A stretch of DNA of 58,134 nt, filler included, from Fonticula-like sp. SCN 57-25 (lineage: Eukaryota), in the NCBI GenBank assembly GCA_001724245.1. It is 5 parts of 5 records of this genome, joined end to end, with 100 filler letters (N's around TTAATTAATTAA, not from the genome) between each part and the next. Parts side by side here need not be neighbours in the genome. Positions count along the whole stretch, not along the records: positions 46,629 to 58,134 come from MEDX01000199.1; 4 more parts are not named here. One strand, given 5' to 3'. The stretch's first letter is position 1; every line of letters begins with the position of its first letter. Below, one piece after another: positions 11,665-58,134 of this stretch. The translations under genes were made by a program, and so were the position numbers. The notes beneath the pieces were generated by a model. The model was given only the letters and a program-made list of their open reading frames with translations, was not told the origin of the DNA and did no database searches.

Positions 11665-11764
11665 NNNNNNNNNNNNNNNNNNNNNNNNNNNNNNNNNNNN
11701 NNNNNNNNTTAATTAATTAANNNNNNNNNNNNNNNNNNNNNNNNNNNNNNNNNNNNNNNNNNNN
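11665..11764. other. Artificial contig-joining spacer
   Basis: 44 N + TTAATTAATTAA (stops in all six frames) + 44 N. Confidence 0.97.
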
Positions 11765-13009: not shown

Positions 13010-14065
13010 TCCCCAGCCCAGCTCAGCTGCCCGGTCGTCAGCTATCAAGTTCCAGACGTCGGCCGTATGAAAGCAGTTGATTTCAACTCGGTCATAGATG
13101 TTTGGGGGACTAGCTCACATGGTAGAGCACTCGCTTCGCATGCGAGGGGTACAGGGATCGATACCCTGGTCCTCCACAATTTTTTTTTTGATTTTTTGTC
13201 CACGTCATATGATTACGCAAGCACGTTTCTAACCACAGCAGCCATGCATGCTTCTGTATGCCGTGCCAGCACGCCCACCCAATCCAATACGCACTGAGGC
13301 GGTGCCTTTTTGCAACGATTTCCATTCACTTCGATCCCCTCTGTAACTACCCTCGTGCCACGCTCGCTGCTATGGCGACGGGCCCTGGTCAAAGGTATTC
13401 TTCCGATATCGAGATCAGGGGTGTACACCCCACGCGTAAATCAAATCACCCTCCATTGGCCCATTCCGAGAATAGCCGCTTTTGATTGGTCGGCTATTTT
13501 GTAACGGTCCTCGCCGATCCCCCCGAGCTTCCCTACCCCCAAATTGCAATTTTTCCTTTACCCATTTTTCCCTTTCGAAGGTTATTCGTCTTTTCGTGCC
13601 TTGTGCCCCGTTCTACCCGTGGTCCCAGCACTTTTTTTTCGCAAACTTGACTATCGCTGCTCACACTCTTCCTGTGTGCACGCGACAAGCTCATTTTGCG
13701 AGGTAAAAAGCAGCTACTCGGATTAGACTCAGAGGACCGCTTCTAGCTCGTACTCGGTACACCCGTACCCGAGTTGTGCGAAGGTATGTTCGAGGGGATG
13801 GCGGAGGGAAGGGATGTGCGTAAAACAGTGTGGCGAAGCGACAGGGCTCGGAAAATGCCGGAATTGCAACCGGCGTCGTGTTTTACGTTGGGATCGACCC
13901 TGTCGCTCTCCCGTAGATTGTGTAGGACTATGGTTGACTTGGTCAACGGGGAAACCCGATGTGCCTGGTCGTCGGCCGCCCTGATTTTGTTGTGGTTGTT
14001 CCCGCTTTTGTGTTTTGCTCGTGTGCTGACGTTGTGCCTGCGATTTATTTCAGCCGACACTCAGC

Positions 14066-23293: not shown

Positions 23294-23319
23294 GTAGACG
23301 TTTTTGAGGGGGGCGTGCT

Positions 23320-23419
23320 NNNNNNNNNNNNNNNNNNNNNNNNNNNNNNNNNNNNNNNNNNNNTTAATTAATTAANNNNNNNNNNNNNNNNNNNNNNNNN
23401 NNNNNNNNNNNNNNNNNNN
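23320..23419. other. Artificial contig-joining spacer
   Basis: N run + TTAATTAATTAA + N run, 100 bp. Confidence 0.97.
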
Positions 23420-26600: not shown

Positions 26601-29600
26601 CGCGCTTGTCAAACATGGCAGAGATGGTGCCAATCGTGCCCTTCCTCTTATCGTCGCCGATCATGATCGAGTTGCGGTTGCGGACCGTCGAGCCGGCCAT
26701 CGAGCTGCGGTCGTCGTTGATCTCGAACTGGATGAACGACTTGAGGCGGTCCGAAAAGTGAATGGACCCCTTGCGGTGCGAGGCGCCGCCGACATAGGTC
26801 GACCTGCCCTGCGACGCCGTCTGCATGCGCGTGCGCTTCTCGTCCTCAATCAGCTGGCTCTTCATCGAGCGCAGCTCCTTGAACACAATCATGCGCTGCG
26901 TAAGGCGGTGGCGCATGTCCTCAAAGAAGGACTCTTCGGACGTGCTGCGGAAGAACTGAAGCAGTGCGAGCTGCGACTTTTCGTTGCCGCCGTTGAGGAG
27001 GTCGCGCAGCAGCAGCAGCGACGCGTTGCTCACGTCGTCGCCGCGCGCGCGCCGGGCCGACACAAAGTTGACCGCGACCGAGGCAACGCCGGCGGTGCAC
27101 ATGTGATCCTGGATGAGGAGCGTCGTCTTTTCTTCGAGTGCGCGCGGGTCCTTGGCGTGCGGGAAGCGCGGCATCCGAATGAGCGCAGTCAGCAGCTTGA
27201 GCAGGGCCTCGTCCGTCTCAACGTAGCGCTGCTTGTCGGCCTTGTCTTCTTTGCCGGAATACTTGAACGACTCGTTCATCTTGTGCACAATATCGCGGAC
27301 GCGCTGCACGTTGAGCTTGTAGCGCCTGTAGGGCTGGACGCGCAACGTCTCATCCTGCAAGACTGCGTTGATAAAGGTGTGGAACTCTTCGCCGCCAGTA
27401 ATACCAGCCGCCTTCATGTCGGGGGTGCTCGTCTCCTCCTCGTACGTCGTGCGAAGGCTTTTGACGGCCTTTTGGAGCGAGGCGTTCACAGCCAGGTCCT
27501 GCTGGTGGTTCTTTTCATAGTCCTTGACAACTTCGTTCTTGACTACCACGGCCGCAGTCTTGCCGCCGTCGCTGATGGCCGCCTGGAATTCCGTGACGGC
27601 AGCGTAGTTATCAATGATGTGGAAGTCGGAGATGTACATGTGGTCGTCCACCTTGCTGGTCACCGCATCGTACATGGCCGAAAGGGCGGTCGAGAAGAGC
27701 GTCTTGTGATGGTAGGTGAAGCGGTCGGTATGCTCCATCATCTTGGTCAAAAAGTTGAGGAACGCCTTGCTGATGTGGTCAATGTGCGCCTTGAAATTGG
27801 GCACCTTCTCCTTGAGCTGCTCCGACATGTGGAAGTACTGCGAGAAGAACTTGCGCGGGACAGTCGCGCCAGCCTCAAAGGCAAAGAACGAGTCGTGGCG
27901 CTCGAGCGGCTTGGAAAAGTCCTTGGCCGCAATCGTGTTGAGCGTGTCGGCAATCATGTCCAGGACGAGCCAGAACTGCGGGTTGAACTGAATCTCGGCG
28001 ATGGCAGAGTCGCTATCGCGCGAGTTGGAGTTGAGGTACACCCACAAAAAGTAGCGCAGGTAGGGGCGCTTCAAGTCGACGTGGATTTGCGGGTGGAGAA
28101 TGACATCGTACAGCTCGGGAAGGTCGAAAATGTTTTGAAGAATCGACTCGCTGTAGCGGTTGCCGCCTTCCGCGCACGACGAAAGGAAGCGCACGAGGCG
28201 CCAGTGGTACTCGTGCTCGTCGGGCTCCTTGGCGCCACCATTCTTCGAGGTCACCCAGTACTTTTGAGAGCACTCAACGAGCAGCTACAGCACCAAAAAG
28301 AACGTCAGTAAATGAGAGCACCAGCCAGCGCCGTACGTTGATGCGCCTCTCGTTGTCGTTGTTCTCGACGAGCAGCAGCGTGTCTGAGCGGCGCTGCAGC
28401 ATGTTGGACAGCACAAAGTTCTGGTTGCGCTTGAGCGGCAAGTCGATGGAGTCGATCTTGACGATAAAGTTGAGCAGCTCGAGCATGTTGGGAATTTTAG
28501 TGTTGTAATCGGCCAGCATGCGGACGAGCTTGGCGATCTGCGACTCCTTGATGGCCATGCAGAGGCGCTGGTTGTCGCGGAAAAGCGACGTCAGCGAGCG
28601 GATCATGTCGGGACGGCACAGCGGGAAGTCCAGGAACCAGTCGAGGCGGTCAAAGACCTGCTTCTGCAGCAGCGCGTGGCCGCGGATGAAGCCTACAAGG
28701 AAAGGGCGGTCAGCGGCGGCGGCGGCGGCCAGGAAAAAGGTCACGTACTCTGGAGGAACTTGAACAGGTTCGTGTAGAGCGTGTTCCAGGCCTTTTCATT
28801 CGTGACCATGTCGGCGTTGATCGGGCGGCTCATGAACGCAATGACAATGTCGAGCAGGCCAACGGTGTACAGGAGATCCTGGTTCACGACGTGGCGCGTG
28901 TCCGCGTCATTTTTAAGGTGGCAGCGCAGCTTCAGTTCGGCAAAGATCGCGGCGACCTTTGCGAGCTCGGGGGTTGTAAGGTTGGCCGCCCGCGAGAGCG
29001 AGCGCAGCACGGGGAGGTGCTCAGTGCGCAGCGTGCGGTAAAATTCCGACGTGGCAGTGCTGACAGAAATGTAAGTGTCATCGATCGTGTCCAGCAGGCG
29101 GTGCGTCGGCGAATGCAGCTTCTGGATGATGGAGAAGCACAGGTGCGTCATGCGCCAGTCGTCAAACCGCGAGCATTTCTGACCAGCAAACAGCGTCAGT
29201 TTGGCCAGCCTCAATCCACAAAACAGCGTACGAAAAGATCGCCGATGAAATCAGCCTCATCTTCAGCAGCCGCGTCAACCTCGTCGTTAAGGAAGCCAAC
29301 GAGATCCTTCCTGAGGCGCGCGTCAAGCGGGCGCTCTTCATTGCCGGTGTTCTCGTTCAAGGAGACGATGAGATCCGTAATCGACCTGTTGTGGTTCGCA
29401 AGGCGACTAGAGGATCCAGGGAAACGATAAGCGACTGGGCACACACACCAAAAGGAACTCAGGGAAATCAAACCACGTACACTGTCTTGCGGGACACCTT
29501 CTGGTCTGGCTGGATGCCGCGCGACGCGTTGACAAAGGTCGCGAGGAAAGAGAAGAGGCGGCGGCGCGACTCGATATCAATGAGGCTGTCAATGATCTTG

Positions 29601-32600
29601 AGAGCCGTGCGCGTCACGGCCAGCGCCGACTTGTTCTTCTTGCTCAGCGCAACGTAGTCGATCTTTTTCTCCTCCGCGTCAACATCAAGGGCCTCGAAGA
29701 AGTTGTCAGTCTCATTCTTGGGCTTTGCGACGACCATGTCGGACTTGGTCTGGTTATCGAGCGTGAAGAGCTTTTCCTCCGTGGTATCGTTCGCCGAAGG
29801 GTTCACCGTCTTCTTGGCGGTCAGGATGAGCTGGTGCTTGACAATCTTCTTCAGCTGCTCCATCAGAGTCGCTCCTTTGGCGCCCGGGTCCTTGATGTAG
29901 TACCCGGCTTCCACGAGCACGTGGACCATCTAAGAACGGCGGTTAGAACGCAGTGCGGGCCTGCAGCAAGCATACCTCAAGGATGGTGGTCAGTACTTCG
30001 TTGTGAGCAACGCCAATGTCGGTGCCGGACGTGTCGGGCTGGACGGTCGGCAGGAAATCAGAAATCCAAGTCAGCAATGTGGCAAAGTCGCCAGCGTCGA
30101 GCGTTGAGCCATTCAGACCCTCACGGTTCTCAAACCGCTTCTTGGCATCGTCGTTGTATGTGCTGACGAGCTACGCAAAGGGCGGTTAGCGCGACACGAC
30201 AGTGACCAGGAGGGCGTTCGTACCAGGGTCTCCTCGAGGATGCGGGGCGAGTCGACGTCGACAAAGGCAGACGAAAGCAGCGACACAAACTGCTTGCGAA
30301 GACGGGAGGCATTCTTAATGGACCCGCTTGGCACGGCGTTGGATTCTGCCCTCATTGCGGCAGCGATATCCTTGCTCACCATGTTGAAGCAAATGGCAAA
30401 GTCAACAAACTTGAGCTTCTTGAGCTCCTCGATGACGGGCTTGTTGCCTCCCTGGCACAGGTTGGAGATCAGCTTCACGCTGTTAATGACGTACTCCTGG
30501 TGCTCGGGGCTCATATCGCCAAACTTCTTGGGCGACTTGGGCTCAGAAGGGTGGATAAAGTACAACCCTTCCTCCTCCTTCACGACCCACTTGGCAATGA
30601 CCTACAGCAGCAGACATCGTCAGGCAACCAAACACTAAAAGCAAGGTGCGTTCGTACCGGCTTTGTCTGACGCTCGACGATTAGTTTGTCCAGAATGTAC
30701 TTTTGGATGTGCGCGAGGCCGCGCTTGCGCGAGACGGCGCAGGCCGACAGGAACCCGAGGTACGACGACGTCTGCTCATTGGCGAGGTTATCGATAAAGT
30801 TCTGGATGAACGGCAGCTCAATGCGGTTGAGAATCTCGTCCTCGTCCTTGACAAGGCCCATGAGCATGACCTCTGCGTGGATCCTGTGCGGCGCCTGCCA
30901 CTGGAAGAAGGGGATGTTGTACGCGACGGTGAGCAGGTTCTTGCGCGAGCCTCCCGTGATATACTCGCCAAAGACGTCGTACACGAGGCGGAGCACGCCC
31001 ATCAGCGCGGGGTAGCGACCCAGGCGCTTGATGTCGATACCGTAGGCGGGGTTAAAGTCGTCCTCGTAGAACTCGGGGACCGGCTTGAACGGCGCCTGGA
31101 GCATCTGCAGGCAAATGTTGACAAGGCCGAGGTGGCGGAAAATACGCTGATTGATGCGCTTCTTCTCGGCCTGAGACAGGAAATCCTTGAAGCGCATGAG
31201 CGTGTCCATGACAGCCTTGGACTCGGCCGCCTTGACTTCCCACGACTCTGCCTGCTTGCGCCTGTAGATGAACTCAAGAAGGACGGGGATCAGGCCCATA
31301 ACCGTGTTGCAGATCAGGAGCTGCTCCTGCGAGACAAGCTCGACCGTGAACGCGTCATCGTAGTTGACGATCGGGCTGCTCGTCAGGTCGTACTTTTCGT
31401 CCTGCTTGTCATAGATGTTAAGGTAGTCCACCTGCGAGTTGGGGGACAGCGAGCGCTTGTCCGTGTTGCGGCGCCCCGCCGGGCCCTTGGAGCTCTTGTC
31501 GCCGTGCAGCGACGACGACGTCATCAGGTGCTCGATGCGGCCATAGACCTCGGTCGTGACGTAGCCCGTCGAGCGGTTGAACGACTGCATCTTGAACGCA
31601 ACGTTCCTGTCAATGGTGGACGTGAGCGCGGCCGGAAGCGCAAGCGGCTCCTTCTTCAGGGTCCCGAGCTTGGAAATGCCCTTGTCATCCAAGACGAGGT
31701 ACTTGCGAGAAGCCACGTGCTTCAAGCGGATGAGCTTGCCCCACGAGACCAGCTCGCCAGAGGTCGGCTCGTCGTGGCTCTCAATCTGGAAATAGGAAAG
31801 GATCGACTCCTTCTCTTCCTGGTTGTTGAGGCGAATGCGGAGATACGGAGGGGCTGGGTCGACCTCGTCCTCGAAAAAGACATCCTCGGCCTGGATGTGC
31901 GCGTCAAGTTCGCGATGGTGCAGGCACACCGTGTCGCCAAAGTGAATCGCCTTCTTTTCAACGCCAACCGGCTCCGGCTGGTAGCGGCGGTGCGAAACGA
32001 CAACGAAGGGGGACCCGGGCACAGCCAGGGAGGCCTCGTACAGGTACGGGTCGGGCAACTGCGTGTCCGACGCAAGATGGTGACCTGCAGCGCGTCAGCA
32101 AGGGGCTGCAAAAACATGGCATGTGCGAGCGTACCGGGGCGCTTCACGCTCTGAAGCAAAATGGTGTCGTTCGGCATGATTTCATCACCCTCCGAGCGCA
32201 GCTTGAAGCGCGGCAGGATCATGAAAAAGCTCGACTTGTCGCTGTTGTCGCGCAGGTCGACGCGGATGTTTTGCACGTTCGTAGCCGGCTCGTTGGTGCG
32301 AATAGAGAGAAACTTGTTGGTGTAGTCGTGCTGCAGCTGCACGATCTCGCCGTACTTGATCGCCTTGCCCGACTGGCGGCGCTGCTCGTTGGCATTCTCG
32401 CGGGCGTCGGCCTCGGCCTGGCGGACAAGGTTCTGATGATCCTTGTCGTTCTCCAAATCTGAAGCGCAAAATGGTCAGAAAAAGGCGAAACAGGCGGCGC
32501 GAGATCGCGCACAGTTTGTGGCCTTCTTCTTGGCCAGGCGCTGCTTCAGCGCGGTCAAGCGGCGTGTGGCCTTGTACTTGAACGGGACGACCAGCTTGAA

Positions 32601-34932: not shown

Positions 34933-35032
34933 NNNNNNNNNNNNNNNNNNNNNNNNNNNNNNNNNNNNNNNNNNNNTTAATTAATTAANNNNNNNNNNNN
35001 NNNNNNNNNNNNNNNNNNNNNNNNNNNNNNNN
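34933..35032. other. Artificial contig-joining spacer
   Basis: N run + TTAATTAATTAA + N run, 100 bp. Confidence 0.97.
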
Positions 35033-42886: not shown

Positions 42887-45800
42887 TTAATAGTCCTCGA
42901 GCTCGAGCCTTGGCACAATATTCATCGACTGCAGCTCCTGGAACAGCAGCTTGCACGCGTACGGCAGCCGCAGCGTGCACACATCCACCGCCGACTTGCA
43001 CAGATTGCACCACCCAGCGTAGCCCAACATGCCGCAGCGCTTGCAAATGTGCACCTCGAACGCGTCGGACGAGATCATGAGCCGCTCGAGCAGCAGCATT
43101 GACGCGCCGTAGCCAATCAGGCAGTCGCGCTCCATCTCGCCGAGACGCAGACCACCGTCACGTGAGCGACCTTCCGTCGGCTGCCGCGTGAGCACCGCGC
43201 GCGGCCCGCGCGAGCGCGCGTGCATCTTGTCCATGACCATGTGCTTGAGCTTTTGGTAGTAGACCGGCCCGAAAAAGACGTACGCGCTGAGCGGCTCGCC
43301 CGTCACGCCCGACGTGACGTAATCCTTTCCAAAGTAATTGTACCCGTTCGCGACGAGGATCTTGCCCATGTCGTCCACCTTGTCGCCGCCAAACGCCGTG
43401 CCGTACTTTAGCGCGCCCGTGAGCACGCCGGCCTTGCCGGCCAGCAGCTCAATCATCTTGCCGACCGTCATGCGCGACGGGAAGCCGTGGGGGTTCATGA
43501 TGATGTCGGGGCAGATGCCATTGTCCGTGAACGGCATGTCCTCCTGGTTGACAATGATGCCGCACACGCCTTTCTGGCCGTGACGGGAGCTAAACTTGTC
43601 GCCAATCTCGGGGCGGCGCGTGCTGCGCATCAGAACCTTGACAAGGAACTGGTTCTCGCCGTTGGATGTCAAAAGGACCTTGTCGACGTAGCCAAAGCAG
43701 GGCGCCTTGTACGTCATGGGGGTCGACTTGTACGCGCCGTCGGCGACCGCGGTCGTGTCGGTGATCGTGTTGGTCGTGTTTGTGGGGGTCTGCTTGTTGA
43801 TGTAGACTTGGCCGGGGTGCACGCGCTCGCCGACGCCGCAGATGCCGTCCTGCTCAAGAATCTCAAACTTGGTGCCGGACTGGTCGCCAGGCGGCGGGCC
43901 AACAATGCGGTCAAAGCTGCAAAACGCACGAAAAATGACAAGAAAAAAGGCACAAAACCCGTTAGCATCGCAAAAATCACACATCTTCTGCGTGCGCACC
44001 TCTGGTTGGGGTACTTTTTGATGACAGCCGTGTACTTTCTGAGCACCTGGCACCGCCCAAACCCTCTATCGAGAGACGCCTTGTTGATGACGAGCGCGTC
44101 CTCAATATCATATCCAGTATAACTCATGACTGCGACGACGGCGTTCTGCCCCGACGGGATCTTGTCAAACTTTATGAGCTCGATCGTCTTTGTCTTGACC
44201 ATGGGCTGCTGCGGGTACACCATGAGGTACAGCAGCGTGTCGAACCGCATGTACTGATTGTAGCCAATCGTGCCAATGGACTGCTTGCCCATGGCGCACT
44301 GGTACGTGTTGCGCGGCGACTGGTTGTGGTGCGGGTACGGAATGATGCCAGCGCACACGCCGAGAATAGTGAACGGCTCAATTTCAAGATGCGTCGTGCC
44401 GGACGTAATGTCGCGCTCGTACAGCGCAATGCAAGAGTCGTTTTCTTCGTTCACGTCGAGGTACTCTACGAGGCCGTCGCTGAGGCAGTCCTGGAACGAG
44501 CGCAGGCCGTCGGCGATCTCGCGCATGTGGCCGGCGTGCACGCGCGGGACGCCGCCTTCGACCACGATCAGCGGGCGGCACACGCGGCCGCCGTCGGAAG
44601 CGATAAAGACGCAGCGCTGCGCGGGGTTGCTGTACGTCGACACAAACTCGCTCAGGTAGCCGGCGCGGCGGAGACGGCGGAAATTTTCGACAAAGCGCGT
44701 CGGGTCGCGCACAACGCCGAGCATCGTGCCGTTGAGGAAGACCAAAAAGGTGTCGCTGGCGCTCAGCTCTTCACCGGAAAACATCTCGGCGTCTTCCACG
44801 CCGAGCGAAAAGGCGAGCCGCGCGATGGGCTCCTCCTCGTCGTCCGTCGTAATGTGCGTCATGAGAGCAAGGTTCTTTACGAGACCGCACGCCTCGCCTT
44901 CGGGCGTGTCGGACGGGCACAGCATGCCAAACTGCGACGGCTGGAGCGAGCGCGGGCCGCTCACCTTGCGCGTCTTTTCAAACTGCGACGAGATGCGCGT
45001 CATCATGCCGAGCGCGGAAATGTACGACAGGCGCGAGAGGACCTGCGTCACGCCGGCGCGCTCCATCTTGAAGCGCTTCACAGTCCAGTTGCCGGTCGAG
45101 ATGGCGTGCACGAGGCCGTTCGTGATCGTGTCCTGGCGCAGCGACAGCAGGCGAATCACATCAAAGGGCTGCGCGCGGTGCTGCTTGGAAAGCACCTGGT
45201 CAATGTTGCGCTTCAGCTCGGCATTGAACCGCTTGAAAAGATCTTCAAACAAGAGGGCGAGAAGCTGGCCGGCGAGCTCGAGGCGCTTGTTGCCGTAATA
45301 GTCGCGGTCGTCGATGGCCGACGGGTCGTGCATCGCAATGATCATGCGGCGCACCATCAGCGCCACAAAGAGACACTTTGGCCGGTAGTAAAAGTTGACC
45401 ACGGGCACGTGCGCAAGGATGACGCCGGCAAGCACCTCGCGCGCCTCGTCCACCTTGGGCTTGCGCGACGTCCACCCGCGCTTGACAGTCTTGACGCGCG
45501 TGCCAATGTACTCGAGCGCCTGCGTCTGCGTAAAGATGCGCAGACCGGAACACTCTTGAAGCGACAGGGCAAAGGCGTCGGTGAAGGACTGCTCCGAACC
45601 GATAAGCTGCACAATCTCCTGGTCAGACTCCATGCCCATCGCCTTGAGGACAACGACAATGGGAATGTCCTCGGAAAGCGAGTTGTGCTTGAGGTAAAAC
45701 TTGTTGGACTTGATAACGACATTCGTCTTACTCTTGCGCTCGTGCGTCGAACTCGTCACCGACGCAGTGACAAGGCCCTTGCGGTCCAGCTCGACAATGA

Positions 45801-46522
45801 TGCGGTTCTTGGAGAGCTGCTCCTGGATCAAGATCACCTTTTCAACACCCTTGACAACGAAATAGCCTCCTAAACATAACAGTGAGCAAAATGTACACAA
45901 AAGGCAATATGACGAACCAGGATCAATGGGGCACTCGTTCATCTTGATGACCTCCTCCTCGGACTTGTTGTTGAGCACGCAGTGCGAGCTGCGCAGCATC
46001 ACGGGCATGCGGCCAATGAGCACATTGCGACGCGCGACAATCTGCTTTCCGCGCGTAAACTCCACGTCAACATACTGTATCACAAGTTAGTATGCAATAA
46101 TAAGAGAAAAACACCGCGAACCATGGGCGCCGAATAGTTCATCTCGCGGAGGCGGCACTCCTGCGGCGTGATCTCGTGCACCACGGCGTTCTCCTCAAAG
46201 CTCGGCTGGCCCACTGTGATATTCGTGTAGCGCAGGAAAAACATCGGGTCGACATCGCTCGTAACCTTTTCGTTGGCCTGGACAATTTTCTTGAGATCAA
46301 CGTCGGCGAAATAGTTGAACGAGTCAATGTGCTGCTTCACGAGGCCGCGCACGCGGAGGAAGGCTGGCAGCAATCGCCATTTCTCCTAAAAACGCACAGA
46401 ATTAGCACGGCATTGTCCCATTCGCCACCACGGCGCTATTGCCAACGAACCTCGACTGTGGCGATGGGCGTGTGCAGATCTCCCGGGTCCACATCGACCT
46501 GCTCACTCTTGACCTCGTGCAT
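42887..46522 (-). CDS. POLR3B: RNA polymerase III second-largest subunit (RPC2)
   Basis: [110 protein letters not shown]. Confidence 0.97.
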
Positions 46523-46528
46523 GGCCGC

Positions 46529-46628
46529 NNNNNNNNNNNNNNNNNNNNNNNNNNNNNNNNNNNNNNNNNNNNTTAATTAATTAANNNNNNNNNNNNNNNN
46601 NNNNNNNNNNNNNNNNNNNNNNNNNNNN
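46529..46628. other. Artificial contig-joining spacer
   Basis: N run + TTAATTAATTAA + N run, 100 bp. Confidence 0.97.
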
Positions 46629-47225
46629 GCCCCTGCGGTGCGTGATTTGAGGCGATTTGAGGCTTTGGAAACGCTGACAGATCGTTACGGTAAACATTTA
46701 CCGGAAAGGTCGGTTTGAGCCCTGTTACACAGAGTTTGAATCCTGAAAATCGCATGCGATTTTTGGAAACGATCTGATTGGTCAGTTTGATCTTCCTTTC
46801 GAGTGGGATCCCACAATTTGAGAGGGTCATTTTCGCAACGACCTCGAATCTGCGCGCGGCTCCATTGGTTCTTTACATCTTCAGGATTTTCCTGATTGCA
46901 ACAAATTAGTGTATCGTATTTCCGCGGATGACGATTCGGTTCTTATTAGGCGCCTGCCTGACACGCCCCAGATAGCTGACGCGGACCCCCTTTTATAAAT
47001 ATCCAAAGCAAAAGAAGAGAGAGTAAGTGAGCAGAGGCGTTGCTTTTTGCACGATGTACGCAAACTTTGCGAGTTGGACCTACGGAATGGAACCTTTGCT
47101 ATGGTACTTTATTAGACAAATTCATTCCGCAACACATATAGCAAAACAGAAGAGCAAAAGGTACTGGCAAATATCACAGTTCGACAAGAAAGAAGAGGTT
47201 CTATGGTACAAATGGCGCGCAAACT

Positions 47226-48683
47226 TTAGCGCGTGGAGGGCATTTTAGAGGCGAGCGTGTTGGCCCGCGTGAAGGGGTAAGACAAAAAGTCAAAGATTGC
47301 GGCCAGGCCGCCTGAAACCGGGTCGGCCGGCATGTCGGCCACGTCTTCTTGGCTGTGGTAGTCATTGTCGTCGTCTTGGCTGTGGTAGTCATTGTCGTCC
47401 TCCTCCTTTGTGGGCAGCGAGTGGTCCAGCGGGAAAGGCTCGAGTACCACCTCCTGCTCATCGTCGTCCATGAACGCGTCGTCGGCGACGACGTCATCGA
47501 GGTGGTCCAGCTCGCCGGGAATGGCGCTGTCAAACTCGAGCGCGCGCCCATGGCTCTCATCGGCGTCGTCTTGCGCGTACGTCTCCTGGTCAGCGCCGGG
47601 GCCCATGACCTCGAGGAGCGAGCCGAGTACCGCGCGGTACATGTGCGGCGGCTCGTTCGCGACCAGCGGGGCGAGGCCGAGGTTACCGGTGGGGGGCGCG
47701 GGGGCGATCGGTGGCTGCTCGTCGGAAGCCGCCACCGACGCATCCACAAACGGCGCAAGCGACGAGTCGCCATTGAGCAGCCGCTTGACTTTAAGCTTTT
47801 CTACTTTGCCTTCCCAGAATTCCTGCAGGAAACAGTGAGCGCGAGCGGGGGAGAAGGGCTGGTGCGTACAGTGCGATTTTGAAACTTTTTCGGTGTCGTG
47901 TCCGACGGCGAGATGGCTCGGCACACGCGCCACCCGCGAAACACATGCACGACATCAAGGCGATAGCGCAGCGCGCAGTCTGCCTTGGACGACAGCTCCC
48001 GTAGGTAAATCGTGATCTCGGCTGGGCAAAGAAGGTCAGGAAAGAGAAAGGAGGCAAGAAAAAGGGAAACGCACTGGCGCCATCAACGTAAAATTCGGCC
48101 TTGGAGGCCACTTTAAGCGCCGCGTCGCGCGGAAGCCTTCCGGGCAAACATTAGGCTCGAGAAACGAGAATGCACTAGCGTACTTGTTATGCATGATGCG
48201 GAGCTGGTTGTTTTTCGTCAAGATGGGGCGGAGCGAAGAGTCCAACAACACAAAACTACGGATACCTGTTCACAAAAACGTTAATAATTGCCCGATGCAT
48301 CGAGAGGAGAGAATGGGGGCGCGCACGGCGGTCTCCGCTCTGGACAGCGTGGTGCAAATTTCTCCACTTGTCCTTTAGGTCGGTCGCCGTGCGGCCAGGC
48401 GAAAATGACGCTGCCCGATGCTTGAGAATCATTGACCACGCCCCCTCGCCATATCGTCTAACACCTTCCTCGAGAGCCCTACGGGATGCGCGCAGTGAGC
48501 ATGAGTTTTGCAGGGAGGAGGATGGGGGAGGAAGCGGAGGAAAAAAAAGGGCACGCACTCTACCTCGCCGTCGTTCCAAAGAACGCGCTGGCGCCTTCTC
48601 TTGGTTGGCGAGCCTTCCACAGAAGAAGACTCGGAATACCTCCCATATTCGTCATCGTCGCTCGATCGCTTGGGCGATGACAT
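47226..48683 (-). CDS. Telobox (TRF-like) single-Myb protein fused to an MC1-like chromatin domain and an acidic tail (6 exons)
   Basis: RRRQRVLWNDGEVE|ALEEGVRRYGEGAWSMILK...RTATDLKDKWRNL (telobox). In-frame splicing of four further GT-AG introns gives RSFVLLD...NKLPRDAALKVASK...ITIYLREL...VVHVFRGWR...EFWEGKVEKLKVKRL. Confidence 0.8.
47347..47399. repeat. 27-bp tandem duplication encoding DDNDYHSQ(D/E) twice
   Basis: tcttggctgtggtagtcattgtcgtc occurs twice in tandem. Confidence 0.9.
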
Positions 48684-49062
48684 GCTAAGCCTCGACTACC
48701 TCGGCCACGATTCCAGGGGTGCTCGGGACGAAAGGAAAGAAATGCAAACCCCACCCGGATTTCTCACTACCTTTGCCAATATCCCCGATATACGTCTCCC
48801 CCGGCGACTTGGAGAAATAGGTAGAGGTGTCTTTAATGTGCTGGGCCGCCCACCCTCTCGGGATCTTGCGGGGAGGGGAGGAGGGTTCAGCCTCTTCCAA
48901 TAGAACACAAGAAAGAAAAAATTGTTCTCGATGCACGCCATTGGCGGATAATTTGGCGGGAAAAATTGACAGATTGAGGGTCTCGAATGCCATTGGCCAG
49001 CTCGGATTGCAGCCCACTCATTGGCCGTGAAGTGCACACTACCTAGCCGTGGCGGTGCAGGG

Positions 49063-50430
49063 ATGGGCGAGCGGTTGCCGGTTGTGTCGTTGCGCGAGCT
49101 GCTCGATAGCACACGGCGGCCTGTTCCCACGCGTAGTTTGGCCGCGCAGCTTGGGTTGCAGTCTTCATCGAATTCGCAGCCGGTTGCGCCACCATCTGTC
49201 GACGATGCGCCTCCGGCCACTGCCGCGCCCCAAAAGCCGCCGAAGAGGAGTCTTCGCCAGATATTGAGCGGCAGCAGTAGCAGCCAGGTCTCTGAGCCTG
49301 AAGAGCGGGATCCCGATGCTTTGGTCGCGGAGGCTTTGACGCGGATCGCCACGCAGAATGTGGCTGCCTTCAAGGATGCTATTGCCGACAAAGAAGCGGT
49401 GGCAATTAGAGAAGTGGTTGCCGTCAAGAAAGTAAACGACACCAGTGATCAAGCCGAATCAGAAAAAGAAGAAGAGCACGATATATATTTTCTTCCGCCG
49501 AAAACGAAGCGCCGCAGGACTATACGCGAAACGGCGGTGCGCTGCGGATCGCTCTCAACCTCGCGCGATGCTGACCGGTTCATTTCCGCAGAGATTCAAC
49601 GCGCGGGTAGAACGTGCGCTGAACCAGCGAATGTACCTTATTGACAGACAGGTTGTTACTCCGCTTGAGAAGGAGGAGTTCAAGGTGCTCGGCTCGACGG
49701 GCAATGTGTACAAGGTGACCGTGGAGCAGTCCCCCTCGTGCTCGTGCCCCGACAGCAGAAAGGACAACCGCTGCAAGCATATCGTACGCCCTCGCACCGC
49801 CTTTCTGCGTCTTGTTTACCCTCTGCGCAGCTGTTTGTATTGATTCGCGTGCTTCGACTGCCGGAGGATTCGCCTCTACTATGGGAGACGTTTTTTCAGC
49901 ATGATGAACTGGAAGACATGCTTTCTCAGGCGCCACCGCAGACCCTCCTCTCTGTCCTTGTACGCCTTTGCCTTTCACCGACGTGTGCTGAATCGCCGAT
50001 GCCATTGCAGGCGAGCGAGCGAGTGCGCGACGCGTACGAGGCCCTTGTGAGCGGCAAGGGCGCCAAGGTGGAGCGCAAGTCGCTCGACTGCGAGTGCCCC
50101 ATCTGCATGGAGGACATGGCCGAGTCGCCGGTCGAGCTGGTCGCGTACTGCGCTGTGTGCGGCAACAACATTCACAAGGACTGCCTTACGCGGTGGCTTT
50201 CGCAAAGTGTGGGCCGCACGTGCGTCTATTGCCGGCAACCGTGGACGGACGGTGGCTCGCCCCTCGCCGCGGCCGGCGAGGCAAACACAAACGAGGGTTA
50301 CGTCAACCTGTCGCACGAGGCCGACATGTCAAGAGAGCGCCGTACGAGGAAAAACGGGTATAATGATATACTTGTAATTAACATGCTTTTAGATTATTAT
50401 AGCCGCACTCGTCGATGGGGCTACAACTAA
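49063..50430 (+). CDS. SWIM zinc finger + RING finger protein (MEKK1 N-terminus/ZSWIM2-like putative E3 ligase)
   Basis: RALNQRMYLI...FKVLGSTGNVYKV...SCSCPD...CKHI|LFVL (SWIM); CPICMEDM...CAVCGNNIHKDCLTRW...CVYCRQPW (RING). Confidence 0.88.
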
Positions 50431-50478
50431 CCACGAGATATTGTGTCGTGTATATTACATCATTGTACAAATGTCATT

Positions 50479-51823
50479 CTATTGCATCGAATTTATGTTT
50501 TGCAGGGCGATGAGCAGCAAATGCGTGACGTCCCCTTTCCTCTCCTCATACGAGTTGAGGAACGCAAAGGCGGGTGCATAGAGCGCACCGAGGCGCACCG
50601 CTCGATCCACCGCGTCGCGGGGGACGGCCATGAGAAGCTCGCGCAGCCGTGGGACGTCCCGCAGATCCACACGCACGGCCATGTGGTCCCAGGGGACAAG
50701 CTCATGGAAGGGCGGCACGACGTCGTCCCCGATGATCACAGGAACGCAGCCGTAAAAGAGGGACTCGACCGGCCGCGGCGTCCACAAATAAAACCCGGGT
50801 GGGCACAGGCAGAACGTCGCACCAAGGGCCTAAACGCCTAAAAGTCAACAAAAGGGGGGCAAAAACGACGTACATACGCGCTCAAAGTCGCTGTCGCGGT
50901 CATTTTCTATGAGAATGTCGCCCGACTGGCCGTATAGTTCAAAGAGGAGCTGCCGCACGCCAAAGCTGTGGTGCCAGTACGGCCGGATGACACCCTTGAA
51001 CGCCGCTAGAAGCGGCCGCATTGGCGACGCGCGCGCTCCAAGCGCCTGACGTGCGTGTCCCGTCAGCGAGGGCGGGATGATAATGTGCCGGCGGGGCTGC
51101 GCTCGCGTCAGCGTGGATGACGCAAGAAAGGGACGCGCACATTATACCCAAGGCGCCGGTTTCCGTGCGACAGCAAGAGGACGGGGTCGCCGGGCGGTAG
51201 CACGTTGCCTTCCAGGGCCTCGTAGGCAAACCCATGCGTAATGGCAAATATGTGGTCGCGGCCGCCGCGGCGGCGCCACAAGTTCTTATCGAGATGCCGA
51301 GCGGCTGTGCGAGATCAGCAAGTGCGCGCAGGAGGGGATCTTGCCGAGGGATCTCGCACCTATAGAGAATGCCTCTCGGTACATAGAGAGGCTGTACGGC
51401 TCGCCCGTGGCTATTGTCCTCGAGCATGCGTATTTGTTGGCGTACACGGGAATGTAGATAAAGTCGGCCTGCCGGTTCCATTAGCGTACGATCGCCGTCG
51501 CCGAATGGTACCTTTTCGGGCGTGTCAACACGCGCGCTGCTCCGGAGCAACAGCTCGTGTAAATGAACCTCCATGTCAAACAAGTGGTTCATTGGGCCCA
51601 TTTTGCAGGCGGCCACCGAGACGTTGAGGACGCTCGACGTGACATCGGGCACCGCTTCGGCGACGAATCTGATGCGCATGAGTATCGTAAACATCTCGTA
51701 TTCTGCGCACATGGAAACCGACGGGCGGTCCGCAAACAGTTGACTAAACTGCGCGTGCTCGTCGCGTGCGGCTGCCTGCACGGCCAGGCACGCGATGATC
51801 ACCGCCGTTGCGATGGTCAGCAT
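50479..51823 (-). CDS. Exostosin-family (GT47) glycosyltransferase, multi-exon
   Basis: Signal/anchor; EVHLHELLLRS...TPEKADFIYIPVY; WRRRGGRDHIF; FCLCPPG...WTPRPVESLFYGCVPVIIGD...PPFHELVPW. Confidence 0.88.
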
Positions 51824-51968
51824 TTCAAAGTGTCAATCCGTCATCGAGGCGCTCACCTTGCGCTTCCTATTGGTCGATTCTGGGTCGAATGCCCAACACG
51901 ATGGTCACAGCTGTGTCTCTGCGATGGAGCAAATATGGTAAAGTGTTCTATTGAATACATCATTTAAA

Positions 51969-53114
51969 TCATGCGGGCATGTTGGCAAGAGGCAGCGGGC
52001 GAATAAAATGCACGCTCTCGTCCCATGATGCCGTTGCCATCTGGCCCGGCACGAACAAGTTAAAGTCGATGCCGCACGCGAATCCTGCGTGCCGATCGTA
52101 CACATCGAGAAGCGGCGCTGGCTACAGAATGACACAGGTACTTCAGCATCGCCGCAAGCGGCCAAAAGTGCAATAGGGCGTACCTGCGAGTAGTCCCATA
52201 ACCTCACCGTGGTGTCGTAAGACGCAGTGGCGATGATGTTTCCGTGGTGCGGATCGCACTTGACGCGCCGTACGGCGTTCGTGTGCCCCTCGAGCCTCGC
52301 AAGCGGCTGAAGCGGGCTCCTCAGGTCCCACACGCACGCCGTGCGGTCCGCCGACGCCGTGACAATTGTATTATTCTTGTACTTGTTCCAGTCGAGGCTG
52401 AGCACCTCGTGGTTGTGTGCGCGGAGCGTGAACGGCGCCCCGCCGCCCCGCGTGTCCCACACCTTTACGGTCGTGTCTCCCGACGCGGACGCCATCACAG
52501 CCGCGTCCGACGGCGACCATTGCACCGTGTACACACACCCGGTGTGCTCGCCGAAGGACGCCAGCGCGGTCGGGCGAAGCGGATCCCACTACATGGGGAT
52601 GCAAAGGTCAGCTAAAAGCGGACGATCGCAGGAAAAGCGCACCAGTTTGACAGTGAGATCCCACGATGAAGACGCAAACGTGTCTTTTGAGATAAAGTTC
52701 CAGGCGACGCCAAACACCTCCCGCGTATGCCCCGCAAACTGCTGCACCGGGTGCTCGGGCACGGTCACATCCCACAGGCGGATGTTGCCGTCGCCGCCAC
52801 CAGTCACCACGTGGCGCTCATTCGACTCGCTCCAGCAGCAGTCAAACGTGCCGTCCTGCGTCATGTACGTCTTCTCTACGAGCACGCCGGCCGGCCCAAC
52901 GCGCCCAACCAGCAGCTGGCCATTGCCCACAATGCCAAAGTGCTGCGCGGCACTCACCGCAAATAGGCCTTCATCAAACGGGCTAAATTGTACCTGGTCG
53001 CAATTTAACGTCAATAATGCATTCAACACGAGGGAGACAACCGCGCAGGCCGCAACGCACAGAATTGGGCGCAAAAGGAGCCGTCCGCAGCACCGCACCC
53101 GCCGGCACCGACAT
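51969..53114 (-). CDS. PEX7: Peroxisomal targeting signal 2 receptor (WD40)
   Basis: QFSPF...SAAQHFGIVGNGQL, TQDGTFDCCWSESNE, SSSWDLTVKLW, AHNHEVLSLDWNKY, GHTNAVRRVKCDPH, ASYDTTVRLW. Confidence 0.93.
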
Positions 53115-53130
53115 GGCGCGCAATGACAAG

Positions 53131-53138
53131 TCACGTGA
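53131..53138. promoter_or_regulatory. TCACGTGA E-box immediately upstream of PEX7, followed by CCAAT
   Basis: GTCACGTGAT lies ~17 bp from the PEX7 ATG. Confidence 0.5.
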
Positions 53139-53793
53139 TTTCCATGGGCTCAGCCAATAAGAATGCGCCATTTGTGTATCGCGCATTCCCGGACCATTTT
53201 GGGTGCTTTTTCGGCCAGTCTGCCCCGTTCTATTCAATATCTGACACTTTCCGCTGGGTATATGTAACGCATCGTTCGCGCCTTGGGGCGTTTCCCTCGG
53301 CCGTCCCTCGACACTGCCTTCAGCTGGAGCCTGTCCCTGATCTCGCGATCTGATTGGTCCACATCACCCACATGGCCAGAGGGTCCCGTACGCCCCCCCC
53401 CGAACCGGTTTGCTAGCTGTTCCAAACATAGCGAGGGGACCCAAAACAACACCCCCCGAAGCAATGTCAGTACCAATTTTTTTCTCGTTCCTTTTCTTGT
53501 TTGGACCTTCCTCGCAGGTGAAGTTTCTGTGAACCGGTGCTGCTTTTTTCTAGCGTCGCCGTTGCCACAGTTTACTTCCAAACCTGTACGCCCTTTTTTT
53601 TATTATGCCAGCTGGTTTATTTGGGCGAGCGCCTATTTTTGCATATTTTCGCCTCGCCTTCTTCGGTATTAACACCCCCTTTCTTAGTTTTGTGCCTTTT
53701 CCCTTTCGTCTCCATTTCGACGAAGAGTAAAGTTTAGACGTACGTCGGGCCACCCTTTTTTCTTTGCCATTCCATTTGTTGTAGCGGCGTTGA

Positions 53794-54524
<731 letters not shown>

Positions 54525-54832
54525 ACGCGAGAAAAGAAAGAAGGAGGTCCTGCTGTAAGCGAGCAGTGATTATGCTTTTTGTTCATTTGTATTCCCGTCT
54601 TTCGATTCCACGAGTCGCTCTTTACTTTTCTTTTTACATCCATATGCTGTCGTTTTGTGACCGTGCTTTGTCGCTCTCTGCCTTTGCTATTCTTCAAAAC
54701 CCGTCTGCAAACAAAACATCAATGGACGAGCACCTGGCACAACTTGCGTATCCTGGTCCACATTATAGATTAAAAGTATCTACAAAAAGAGGATATAACC
54801 CTAGCGGGTAGAAAGGAGGAATATATTTATGA

Positions 54833-57124
54833 TCAGTGGTACTTGCCGGCAAAGTTGGCCGACGCGTCCGAGAGGCGCTTGTTGAACCAATGGTTGGCGA
54901 GGTCGTCCTCGTCCGCGCGCAAAAAGTCCAGCAGGTCGAGGCTCTCCCGCATGCCCTGGTGCTGCAGGATGCCCTTGAGGTACACGTTGAGGTTCTCCAT
55001 GCGCTCCTTGGACACCTTTTGTATGTGGCTGCGCCCAATGAAAATTTTGGGCGGGAAGGGTGGCAGAAGCGTGTTGGGGTATCTCATCTTGAGCGTCGTA
55101 TGCAGCTCGAGAAACTGCCTGTGAAAAGAGAGGCGCGGGTGTTAGGCGTCAGAGCAGCGAGAGAGCGAGCTGCGCACTTGTAGCGGCGGAACACTGGAAT
55201 TGGGTCCTCGACGGGCTGCGTCGAGTTGGGCGCCAGGCGCATGACGCGCAGCTCGTACGCATAGTACTTTTCGGGATCGTGGCGCTTTTCAAAATTGACG
55301 ACGGAAATGTCGTGAATCGTCGTGAGTTCTGTTTCGGCGCTTGGCACGCGCGGCTTGCCCTCATCAACGTCCTTGCGCACATGGTCGGCCCCTGCATCGC
55401 GGTGAGCACAGCGAGAAAGCAAAAAGTAAAACTGGGGATACGCACCGATCTGCTTGGACGTGGCCGGCGCGGGCCCGAGCTCGTTCAGGTACTTTTGCCC
55501 CACGGCGCTGTAGAAGAAGCGCGGGAAGACGTCGTTCTGCAGCTGCTGGTAGACGAGCGCCTGCGCTTCGTCAAACATGTTGAGGCTGATGCTCAGCGAT
55601 TCCAAGCGCGCAGCCAGAGCGCGCTTCATCTCACGCGGAACGTCGACGGCCAACTCGGCGTCGTCGGAAAGGTACTTTTGGTACAGGCTCTTGGCGTACC
55701 CAATGGCGTCAGTCGTGGTTGCTGCGCGGCACATTTTTTAGTTCGCTGCAATGCCGGTCGAGCGACGCACCTTTGACATGCTGGAACTGGCGCACGTCGA
55801 GCCAAAACAGCATCTTTTCGACGGTATAATCGTCCACCGAAAAGGCGCACAGGTAGTCGACGCCCTTGTCGGTCGCGAGGACGCCGTCGAGCGACCGCGG
55901 GTCATTCGCGCGCGGCATCGGCTCCTCCTCCGACACTGCGAATCACAACACGCTAAGCATTGGGCATTCGCGTATTCACAGCAAGACGTACTTTCCATCG
56001 AAAGCATGAGGCCATCAAGCATGCTCTGGCGCGCCTCGGCCTTGGCGGGCTTGCTTTCCGTGGCCGGCGGCAGCGCCGGTGGGGCTTCCACGGGCTTTGG
56101 TGGCGCGGCGACGAGAGGCGCAGGCAGAGGAACGTCGGCGGCCGACATGCTAAAGGTCAGCGGCGGCGGAAGAGGTGGCGAAGGCATAGAGGGCGTGGGC
56201 CGAGGCGGCGGGGGAACAGACGGTGGCGAATAGTTTGTGGCGAGCAGTTTGGCGATGTTTGGCAGCTCGCGCCGGAAGAGGACAGAGTCGCGCGAGACGC
56301 ACGACGAGCACACGGGCGCCTCATTGCGCTGGTAGGAGCGCGTCGCGCCCTGAATGACGCGCTGGCAGTGCTGGCACTTGAAGCACGCCGCGTGGAAATG
56401 CCGCCCAAACTGGGCGAGGCCGTCGGCAACAATGGGCAGTGAGCAGGTGTGGCACTTTGGCGAGCCTAGCAGCATTGTCAGCAAGTGCACATGAACCTAT
56501 ATCATGTACGAACAAGAAAGGCAAATGGGGCGGCCGTCGGGGCCGAGGCCAAACTGCTGGCCGTTCACGGCCGCGTCGCACGTGGCGCATCGCATGCAGC
56601 TGATGTGGTAGCAGCGGTCGTTGTAGCGCACAAAGAGGGACGTCGGATCAAGCTCCTCGTGGCAGCTTGCGCACTGTTCCACCTTGACCACGGGCGGCTT
56701 GCTCTGCTCCATGGCCTGCAACACATTCTTGCAAAGCAGCGCGATGCCCTGCAGCATACTGATGAGCGCGGCCTTGCGGCGGCGATCCTCGGTCGAATCT
56801 ACACTCGGGCTCGCAACAAGCCCGCGCGCATCCTGTAGGCAAATGCGCAGAGCAGTCGAGAGGGCGTCGACGTGCCGCAGGATTGGTGTGCGGGCTGAGG
56901 GCGGTCGAGGCGGTCGGTCAGCTCCATTTACACTAGCCAAAGCACGTACCCGCCTTGTCGCTGGGCGCAGTCCTTAGCGTTTCCTCCATTAAGCTTTTCA
57001 CAGCAGCGGCGAATTCGGTAAGTTTAGTAATATACACCGACGCCTCAGAAAGGCTCGCCTTGGAGAGCGCCACCATGCTCGCCACCACGCGGCGCTGCTC
57101 TTCGGCCAGCGCACCGGTGTCCAT
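54833..57124 (-). CDS. Multidomain scaffold: FAT-like helical bundle, 2 LIM, Pro-rich linker, LD-like motif, RGS, PX (7 exons)
   Basis: Six short introns join all parts in frame. LIM: CASC...YHISCMRCATC...ICLSC and CHTC...FHAACFKCQHC...CSSC. RGS: VEKMLFWLDVRQF...LYQKYL...MFDEAQALVYQQLQNDVFPRFFYS. PX: FEKRHDPEKYYAY...FRRYKQFLELH...PPFPPK...RSHIQKVSKER...DFL. Confidence 0.85.
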
Positions 57125-57556
57125 GGCGAAGCTGTTGTTGTTTTGAGTTGCCCACAATGCTGCGACAGGTATGGCTATTGTCACCCCCAACTGTACCCTG
57201 GACGAATCTTGTTGTTCATTTGGTCAGGGGTGAGCCAATGGGAATGAGTCACATCGGTGTTGGATCTTGCGCATGTGATTGGCTGTCCAACTGGCTTTGC
57301 AATTTTCCTTTCGTCTCACCGAAAATGGCGCGGACTGACGTTGGCCATATTGCGCCATGTTAACAATCGAGTAATTAGGGGGGGTTCTTGGTCGAATCTG
57401 CCAAATAGTTGTTATTGGGTCTATTGTAACCGTGAGGACGGTTGGTCCAAAAAGCGGAACGATTGAAAGATGCAGGCCCCCTTAGGAATCACCATATTGG
57501 GCCATGTGTTTGAAATCGTGCCGAAAAAAGGGCCTCTGAGCTCACATTGGGGTGGT

Positions 57557-57595
57557 CCAATATGCAATCCCCCAAACTGGTGACAAGGTATAAAA
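57557..57595 (+). promoter_or_regulatory. CCAAT + TATA core promoter of the YABBY/HMG-like gene
   Basis: CCAAT at 57557 and TATAAAA at 57589-57595, about 75 bp before the ATG at 57670. Confidence 0.55.
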
Positions 57596-57669
57596 GCCAG
57601 TGTAACTTGCAGGGCCACACTTTTTAGCACTACCTCTCGTCCCCGACCAGATCGTTTGCACACAACAAC

Positions 57670-57979
57670 ATGCCTAAGGCTAAGACTACCAAGAAGGCCG
57701 CCGGTGAGGGTGCGTGCTCCAGATCGCTTCCTCGAGCGATGCAGGTTTCTAACTGCGGTGCTTTTTGATATAGGTGGCAAGCGCCCCCTCACTGCCTACA
57801 ACAAGTTCATGCAGGAGGAGCTCGCCCGCATGAAGGCCGCCAACCAGTCGCTCGACCACAAGGCCGCCTTCAAGGCCGCCGCCGCCAACGTACGCCCCCG
57901 CTGCTCTTGCACCCTTGATAGATCGCCAAACGCTGACACACACTCGCAGTGGCAGAAGCACAAGGAGAGCCAGAAGTGA
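57670..57979 (+). CDS. Small basic YABBY/HMG-box-like DNA-binding protein (~60 aa, 3 exons)
   Basis: MPKAKTTKKAAGE|GGKRPLTAYNKFMQEELARMKAANQSLDHKAAFKAAAAN|WQKHKESQK* fits the YABBY motif AYN.F.KEE..R.K...P...H..AF..AA.NW. Confidence 0.85.
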
Positions 57980-58134
57980 GCGATGTCGCCATGCGGCCTT
58001 TGCTCCTTTGTTGCCTCTTCCTGTTCCATTCGTCGTTGTGTTCCGGTCCGTTTTAACGCACGGGGACGCGTCGATGGGCGCAGTCCCCTGCCGTGTTTGT
58101 AGTATGCAATAGTATTTCGCAAAACATTTATGGT

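Follow-up and report, generated by a model that had tools for sequence, protein, structure and literature searches.

MC1 has been treated as an archaeal nucleoid protein with eukaryote-associated relatives only in giant viruses. It is described as archaeal and as spreading horizontally among archaea (PMC7613761), has occasionally been reported in bacteria (PMC5499826), and in a survey of fold superfamilies is listed for eukaryotic viruses “but not in eukaryotic proteomes” (PMC5671483). Among the viral forms, gp275 of Mimivirus binds, bends, and condenses DNA and, according to the preprint that describes it, retains DNA binding and bending with a Lys replacing a key Arg; the same preprint proposes an algal intermediate, yet reports no algal BLASTp matches (bioRxiv 10.1101/2024.02.22.580433; also cited in PMC12550674). 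The SMH/TRB proteins, described as plant-specific, place a telobox Myb at the N-terminus and an H1/H5 globular domain at the center, and one of them, TRB1, is reported to occupy promoter telo-boxes as well (PMC4924339). Here we describe a predicted gene of Fonticula-like sp. SCN 57-25 (Eukaryota; GCA_001724245.1), located in a stretch of 58,134 nucleotides (nt) that we analyzed as a whole and call the window. The gene, at 47226..48683 on the minus strand, has six exons, and its single predicted product would carry a telobox Myb domain, an MC1 domain, and a long acidic tail. We file it as a variant of kinds already known, namely MC1 fusions and proteins with a Myb plus an architectural domain.

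The locus picked out by the first-pass annotation at 47226-48683 does contain a coding frame with the extent claimed for it. Joined on the minus strand, the exons give a spliced coding sequence of 1170 nt, which has no internal stop and comprises 389 codons plus the stop. The start codon (ATG at 48683) is immediately preceded by an in-frame stop, with no ATG found within 216 nt upstream, and the stop codon lies at 47228-47226. In the direction of transcription, the parts of the gene are as follows:

48559..48683, minus strand: exon 1, with the start codon, a Ser/Asp-rich N-terminus, the basic patch PTKRRRQR, and the start of the Myb domain, its first helix as far as WNDGEV
48479..48558, minus strand: intron 1, 80 nt, GTGCGT..GTAG, phase 2; once it is removed, the first Myb helix (WNDGEVEALEEGV) regains its W-x8-L-x2-GV spacing
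48327..48478, minus strand: exon 2, the remainder of the Myb domain, with the third helix TDLKDKWRNL
48266..48326, minus strand: intron 2, 61 nt, GTGCGC..ACAG, phase 1; it connects the Myb and MC1 parts
48184..48265, minus strand: exon 3, MC1 beta1 and beta2, with a hairpin insertion of 7 residues
48137..48183, minus strand: intron 3, 47 nt, GTACGC..GAAG, phase 2; the only choice with a consensus donor that leaves the frame open
48075..48136, minus strand: exon 4, the MC1 helix LPRDAALKVASK, in which P24, R25, A27, A28, L29, K30, and A32 are kept
48022..48074, minus strand: intron 4, 53 nt, GTGCGT..CCAG, phase 1
47870..48021, minus strand: exon 5, MC1 beta3 (IYLRE), a 10-residue loop insertion, beta4 (VVHVFRGW), and the arm
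47823..47869, minus strand: intron 5, 47 nt, GTACGC..GCAG, phase 0
47226..47822, minus strand: exon 6, which opens with MC1 beta5 EFWEGKVEKLKVKRL at 47778..47822; this part retains V84 and K86 and has two conservative changes, I89V and K91R
47229..47771, minus strand: the acidic tail, residues 209-389 (181 residues), with an isoelectric point (pI) of 4.05, 41 Asp plus Glu against 6 Lys plus Arg, and a net charge of about -35

All the peptides that had been quoted for the protein are present, with LKDKWRNL in exon 2, IRSFVLLD in exon 3, LPRDAALKVASK in exon 4, EITIYLREL and VVHVFRGWR in exon 5, and EFWEGKVEKLKVKRL in exon 6. The domain boundaries given earlier (about 48265-47775) likewise agree with those obtained here (48263-47778). 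The description of four short introns following the Myb stands for introns 2-5, with a fifth, the 80-nt intron 1 inside the first Myb helix, having been overlooked.

The five introns (80, 61, 47, 53, and 47 nt) share a donor of the form GT(A/G)CG(C/T) and end in AG. To place them among their competitors, each single-intron GT..AG pair that spans roughly 30-250 nt and leaves the reading frame open was enumerated, which gave 46, 9, 9, 14, and 39 alternatives for introns 1-5, the model itself being counted in. Among these, GT[AG]CG[CT] fits the donor positions of the model only, and the acceptor used with each consensus donor is the nearest one that keeps the frame open. Two alternatives with nonconsensus splice sites score slightly above the model on the second of the MC1 profiles described below (37.1 and 36.9 versus 36.2 bits); the model was therefore not selected by its MC1 score. 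A GTGCGC donor and a ..GCAG acceptor also bound the intron of the RNA polymerase III subunit gene in the window, where homology to archaeal proteins starts at query residue 50-52 (in the closest loci), that is, at the inferred acceptor. It is nevertheless conceivable that the gene model is partly wrong and that the Myb and MC1 parts are made as separate products, through retention of intron 2, an internal start, or another upstream exon. The junctions are deduced from sequence, numerous GT..AG pairs leave the frame open, and retention of intron 2 would yield a Myb-only protein whose frame stops after 31 further codons. Against this, the frame of exon 3 is closed by a stop at 48270-48272, two codons 5′ of the first residue of beta1, and the sole Met of exon 3 falls after beta1; therefore a complete MC1 domain can be translated only when spliced to the Myb exons, and a separately made MC1 would be devoid of beta1 and beta2. 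As the local donor consensus also fits the donors of the model alone, we give separate products only a small probability.

The N-terminal domain belongs to the TRF/telobox type of Myb. Exon 2 alone clears the Pfam Myb_DNA-binding model (PF00249; 26.1 bits against a cut-off of 24.4), and its third helix, TDLKDKWRNL, carries the telobox motif, which is of the LKDKWRN type. A search of PDB chains with this exon recovered 31 distinct sequences at expectation (E) values up to 1, and the top 21 are all telomeric Mybs, including TRF1 (8e-7), TRF2 (1e-4), plant TBP1 (1e-4), zebrafish Terfa, and TRP-type proteins; c-Myb, B-Myb, and MYB21 rank below all 21. The TRF1/TRF2/Tbf1-type proteins are thus the closest to the window protein in this domain, but their Myb is C-terminal, whereas here it is N-terminal and no TRFH was detected alongside it. 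The basic patch PTKRRRQR, which precedes the Myb in exon 1, is a possible nuclear signal.

The profiles support residues 94-206 as a predicted MC1 domain, with a resemblance far beyond chance. To assemble an archaeal reference set, PF05854 was sought in 201 genomes of one archaeal phylum and found in 81 of them, with the controls Haloferax volcanii and Methanosarcina acetivorans both positive; 50 of these MC1 loci provided 49 distinct sequences for a first profile hidden Markov model (HMM). The spliced protein scores 23.8 bits on this model (E = 2.3e-9 for one target), with HMM positions 19-93 aligned to residues 116-206; the MC1 region alone scores 28.1 bits, where the maximum over 2000 shuffles is 11.5. 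A second profile of 191 sequences (142 library matches plus the 49 archaeal ones, none from the window) aligns from positions 7-90 of its 97 with residues 94-206 at 36.2 bits (E = 2.6e-13 for one target, and still about 5e-4 when scaled to 1.8 billion sequences). On the MC1 region alone it gives 39.9 bits against a shuffled maximum of 8.9. Comparison by hhalign yields a probability of 96.9 % (E = 1.6e-10) with the first profile and 97.7 % with the second, over 88-96 aligned columns overall. In global mode, the alignment extends over the full template in 96 columns; its identity to a Methanosarcina-type sequence, which itself matches PDB entry 1t23 at 1.6e-46, is 32 %. From exon 3 to exon 6 the match is collinear, with the order of the elements preserved, and is interrupted by two insertions, one of 7 residues in the beta1-beta2 hairpin and one of 10 in the beta3-beta4 loop. 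The architecture proposed in the first-pass annotation, a telobox Myb, an MC1 spread over four exons, and an acidic tail, thus has the backing of profile statistics (23.8 and 36.2 bits; hhalign 96.9-97.7 %). The five Methanosarcina MC1 strings that it cited all occur, in the same order, in the solved chain 1t23_A.

The contrary view, in which the likeness to MC1 is a product of chance or convergence and the middle region belongs to another fold, draws on the low pairwise identity to MC1 sequences (26-32 %) and on the behavior of exon 5 by itself. Taken alone, this exon retrieved from PDB only a Fic protein at E = 0.53, and the ESM Atlas returned nothing useful (score 0.77). An MC1 profile can, moreover, cross-match unrelated Flg_new repeats. 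Set against these points are collinear, full-length matches from two independent profiles (2.3e-9 and 2.6e-13 per target), which none of the 2000 shuffles approached, and the lack of any competing Pfam family in the exons, where only the Myb was found, or in the unspliced open reading frames (ORFs), which gave no match. We therefore regard a chance or convergent resemblance as very improbable.

The resemblance extends to individual residues. Of 17 MC1 columns that are invariant among the 49 archaeal sequences, 13 are kept, as are 17 of the 26 that are conserved at 90 % or more. R25, described as essential for bending in the solved MC1 complex (PMC6776556), is among the invariant residues retained. 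Of the 14 DNA-contact positions named for that complex in the same paper, six are identical (R4, K22, R25, H56, P72, and K86), two are conservatively replaced (I89V and K91R), and the other six, listed below, are changed. Other kept features are the PR.AALK.A helix, the LRE of beta3, the VHVF.GW of beta4, Pro68, Pro72, and the V84/K86 pair. The domain is also basic, with a pI of 10.24 (24 Lys plus Arg against 12 Asp plus Glu) compared with an archaeal median of 9.84. Archaeal MC1 (PF05854; PDB entries 1t23, 2khl, and 2nbj) is thus the same domain by whole-length profile and by charge; it differs in being a stand-alone protein of about 93 residues, whereas here the domain is internal to a spliced eukaryotic protein of 389 residues.

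Beyond the MC1 domain, the tail contains an 8-residue unit, DDNDYHSQ, twice, starting at residues 333 and 342 (9 residues apart), and has a hydrophobic patch toward its C-terminus. A basic DNA-bending domain followed by a long, regulating acidic tail is familiar from HMGB1-type proteins. The window protein resembles these in that sequence of parts, but they use the HMG-box fold as the bending domain and have no sequence-specific Myb.

Taken together, these features lead us to favor, with moderate confidence, a real nuclear gene whose single predicted product is an architectural DNA-bending protein targeted to repeats. The Myb domain would recognize duplex repeats of the telomere type, whether at chromosome ends, at teloboxes in interstitial or promoter positions, or at both, and the basic MC1-fold domain would make a strong, largely nonspecific contact that bends or compacts the adjoining DNA. 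In this way, MC1 could supply the second DNA contact, replacing the dimerization used by other single-Myb telomere proteins. The 181-residue tail might fold back onto the basic domains and gate their binding, or might instead recruit histones or other partners. The comparison with the plant SMH/TRB proteins made in the first-pass annotation is apt, as an analogy only: there, too, an N-terminal telobox Myb is followed by a central globular domain that binds DNA or chromatin in a general manner (PMC4924339). However, the center of the plant proteins is an H1/H5 winged helix and that of the window protein is MC1, followed by an acidic tail, and exon-by-exon Pfam searches found no linker-histone match in any exon. 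As judged from its domains, the window protein is not a member of SMH/TRB, and we read the shared architecture as probably convergent. The giant-virus MC1-like proteins, with which we compare it through the published description of gp275, similarly hold an MC1-type domain between long nonglobular extensions in a eukaryote-associated genome; they differ in being viral, in lacking a Myb, and in being packaged in virions.

Several observations weigh against this reading. The splice junctions were deduced from the sequence itself, and the MC1 fold was assigned through sequence profiles. The MC1 model of Pfam (gathering cut-off 23 bits) has no match in single exons or unspliced ORFs, its silence on single exons being due to their shortness. 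Neither a TRFH nor any other dimerization domain was detected by exon-wise Pfam searches, and no Pfam family or known motif matches the tail. No relative of the Myb-MC1 fusion was found across profile, library, metagenome, and genome- and viral-contig searches. With exon 5 as the query, a word search of 5.8 billion sequences (at the “longer” lengths) gave four candidates, none scoring, while genome contigs gave 600 pattern matches and viral contigs 27, with no relatives in either. Within the MC1 domain, six of the 14 published DNA contacts are changed (Q23L, Q26D, K54V, R71T, W74K, and K81E), and the intercalating Trp74 is replaced in the alignment by Lys, with a Phe one position later. The alignment is at its least certain in the arm. 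Because Trp74 and these other contacts have changed, MC1-like bending is something that we infer, and the apparent loss of Trp74 is the main reason for doubting it.

The same changes give substance to a different account, in which the protein is real and its MC1-derived domain no longer bends DNA, serving instead as a protein-binding, RNA-binding, or purely electrostatic module; the whole would then regulate transcription from teloboxes, and the tail would be its activation domain. The two hairpin insertions and a tail in which acidic residues are accompanied by bulky hydrophobic ones would suit such a factor, as would the reported presence of plant TRB1 at promoter telo-boxes (PMC4924339). 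What argues for bending is that R4, K22, R25, H56, P72, and K86 persist in a strongly basic domain, and that Mimivirus gp275 is reported to bind and bend DNA even though its key Arg is replaced by Lys (bioRxiv 10.1101/2024.02.22.580433). We consider a nonbending domain unlikely, and the repeat-targeted DNA-bending protein remains our preferred reading.

The earlier suggestion that the gene represents a new family gained no support, as no second member was found in the searches made here. Against longer proteins, the archaeal MC1 profile made 28 matches, in all of which MC1 stands alone or is joined to an IS66 transposase, AMMECR1, or PF12773, and none of which has a Myb. A profile built from five archaeal rows and four exon rows made 493 matches at E values up to 0.001 in a library of 1.84 billion representatives, and the best 150 of these all score 70 bits or more. 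Among these best 150, the nine proteins of at least 186 residues include none with a Myb according to Pfam (six scanned, three precomputed); the Myb scan was confined to these longer proteins, those of up to 153 residues being left out, and a Myb fusion may exist among the remaining 343 matches. A full-text search of the literature found nothing joining MC1 with Myb and archaea; what matched for MC1 and telobox was, to judge by its title, about a regulatory axis of TRF2 in colon cancer.

The library searches also brought to light other MC1 architectures. In several proteins (P0006-P0026, P0147, P0045, P0027, P0081, and P0121), MC1 is joined to an IS66 transposase, AMMECR1, a ParB-like N-terminal region, or a Lys/Ala-rich H1-like tail; the ParB-like region is our reading of the sequence, Pfam giving MC1 only. 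Two proteins, P0079 and P0121, have an insertion in the beta3-beta4 loop, placed as in the MC1 domain of the window. A 1681-residue protein with Flg_new (Listeria-Bacteroides) repeats (P0056), which is one of the nine longer proteins above, scores 44.5 bits on the Pfam MC1 model, whose cut-off is 23, through short repeats that match positions 39-66, and such repeats are likely a false-positive class for that model. A giant-virus metagenome contig (L125) encodes, at 970-1815 on the plus strand, a protein of 282 residues that has an acidic linker rich in Ser and Asp and an N-terminal-half MC1 match of 25.5 bits to the archaeal profile; it shows no pairwise similarity to the MC1 domain of the window, and relatives of this protein and of P0121 were not found in viral contigs. 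The one match from the metagenome scan (L127), on a contig of 75 % guanine-plus-cytosine (GC) content without MC1 signal, was set aside as chance.

Whether the gene is a living one has to be considered in the light of its isolation. It might be an unexpressed or decaying relic of a gene transferred from an archaeon or a giant virus that has by chance stayed open; no relative was found in the searches made here, and the sole match of exon 6 in the library of 5.8 billion sequences is an ORF call from the same DNA. The relic view sits poorly with six exons that have intact splice signals, with an open frame of 389 codons, and with a host-like GC content at third codon positions, which is 0.74 in frame compared with 0.72-0.87 in the neighboring genes (its introns have a GC content of 0.55). 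Further, candidate signals for expression are present where they would be expected:

47108..47113, minus strand: AATAAA, a candidate polyadenylation signal 113 nt past the stop codon and the only AATAAA in 46900-47226 on that strand
48940..49024, minus strand: three CCAAT boxes, a candidate promoter 257-341 nt 5′ of the ATG; they fall within 85 nt, whereas the window as a whole has 0.67 per kb per strand

With housekeeping genes on the flanks as well, a relic appears quite unlikely, and we take the locus to be a nuclear gene that is probably expressed.

The surrounding DNA is consistent with this setting. The composition of the window (about 58 % GC) is that of nuclear eukaryotic DNA, and its ORFs include UTP20, Nup192, an Rpb2-family polymerase subunit with a Pol III-like motif, a protein with RIH and MIR domains, one with SWIM and RING fingers, and a WD40 protein. 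The stretch 46629-58134, which is free of gaps (no N) and comes from record MEDX01000199.1, holds the Myb-MC1 gene together with the SWIM/RING and WD40 genes. Three of these genes can be described as follows:

28277-32094, minus strand: an IP3/ryanodine-receptor-like gene with RIH and MIR domains
42890-46086, minus strand: the gene for a second-largest RNA polymerase subunit of the Pol III type, with an intron of about 90 nt (GTGCGC..GCAG) near 43990-43900
49439-50430, plus strand: a SWIM zinc finger, slightly below the Pfam cut-off, with a RING finger after it

The SWIM/RING and Myb-MC1 genes are divergently transcribed from a spacer of about 750 bp that includes the three CCAAT boxes and may be a shared promoter. 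An MC1-like match of 14 bits at 29130-29657 on the plus strand is an antisense frame of the RIH-domain gene; its likeness to the MC1 helix was rejected as chance. Elsewhere in the window, an intron-less ORF of 3087 codons occupies 14030-23293 on the plus strand, where no tandem repeat was found, and the opposite strand is also open over 3096 codons (14081-23371, minus strand). On our reading of its first 500 residues, the plus-strand ORF seems to start with a calponin-homology region, after which comes a long stretch that is helical and resembles spectrin. Paired runs of 44 N, with 12 bases between the members of a pair, recur with a period of about 11.6 kb at 11665-11764, 23320-23419, 34933-35032, and 46529-46628, which looks like a masking or joining artifact rather than ordinary scaffold gaps.

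Tentatively, the gene may encode a chromatin protein of the MC1 fold that would be the first from any cellular eukaryote, although on present evidence we hold this to be possible rather than probable. An archaeal-type DNA bender would then have been captured, have come to bear spliceosomal introns, and have been placed behind a telomere-repeat Myb independently of plants. Archaeal MC1 and the MC1-like proteins that package the genomes of giant viruses would thereby gain the link on the side of the eukaryotic host that has been missing. If true, an intron-bearing nuclear copy of MC1 would show that the fold found its way into a lineage of eukaryotes. Joined to a telomeric Myb, it would be a second, independent answer to the problem that plants met with a Myb and an H1/H5 domain, and it offers a simple system for asking whether a monomeric bender can replace dimerization in the binding of telomere repeats.

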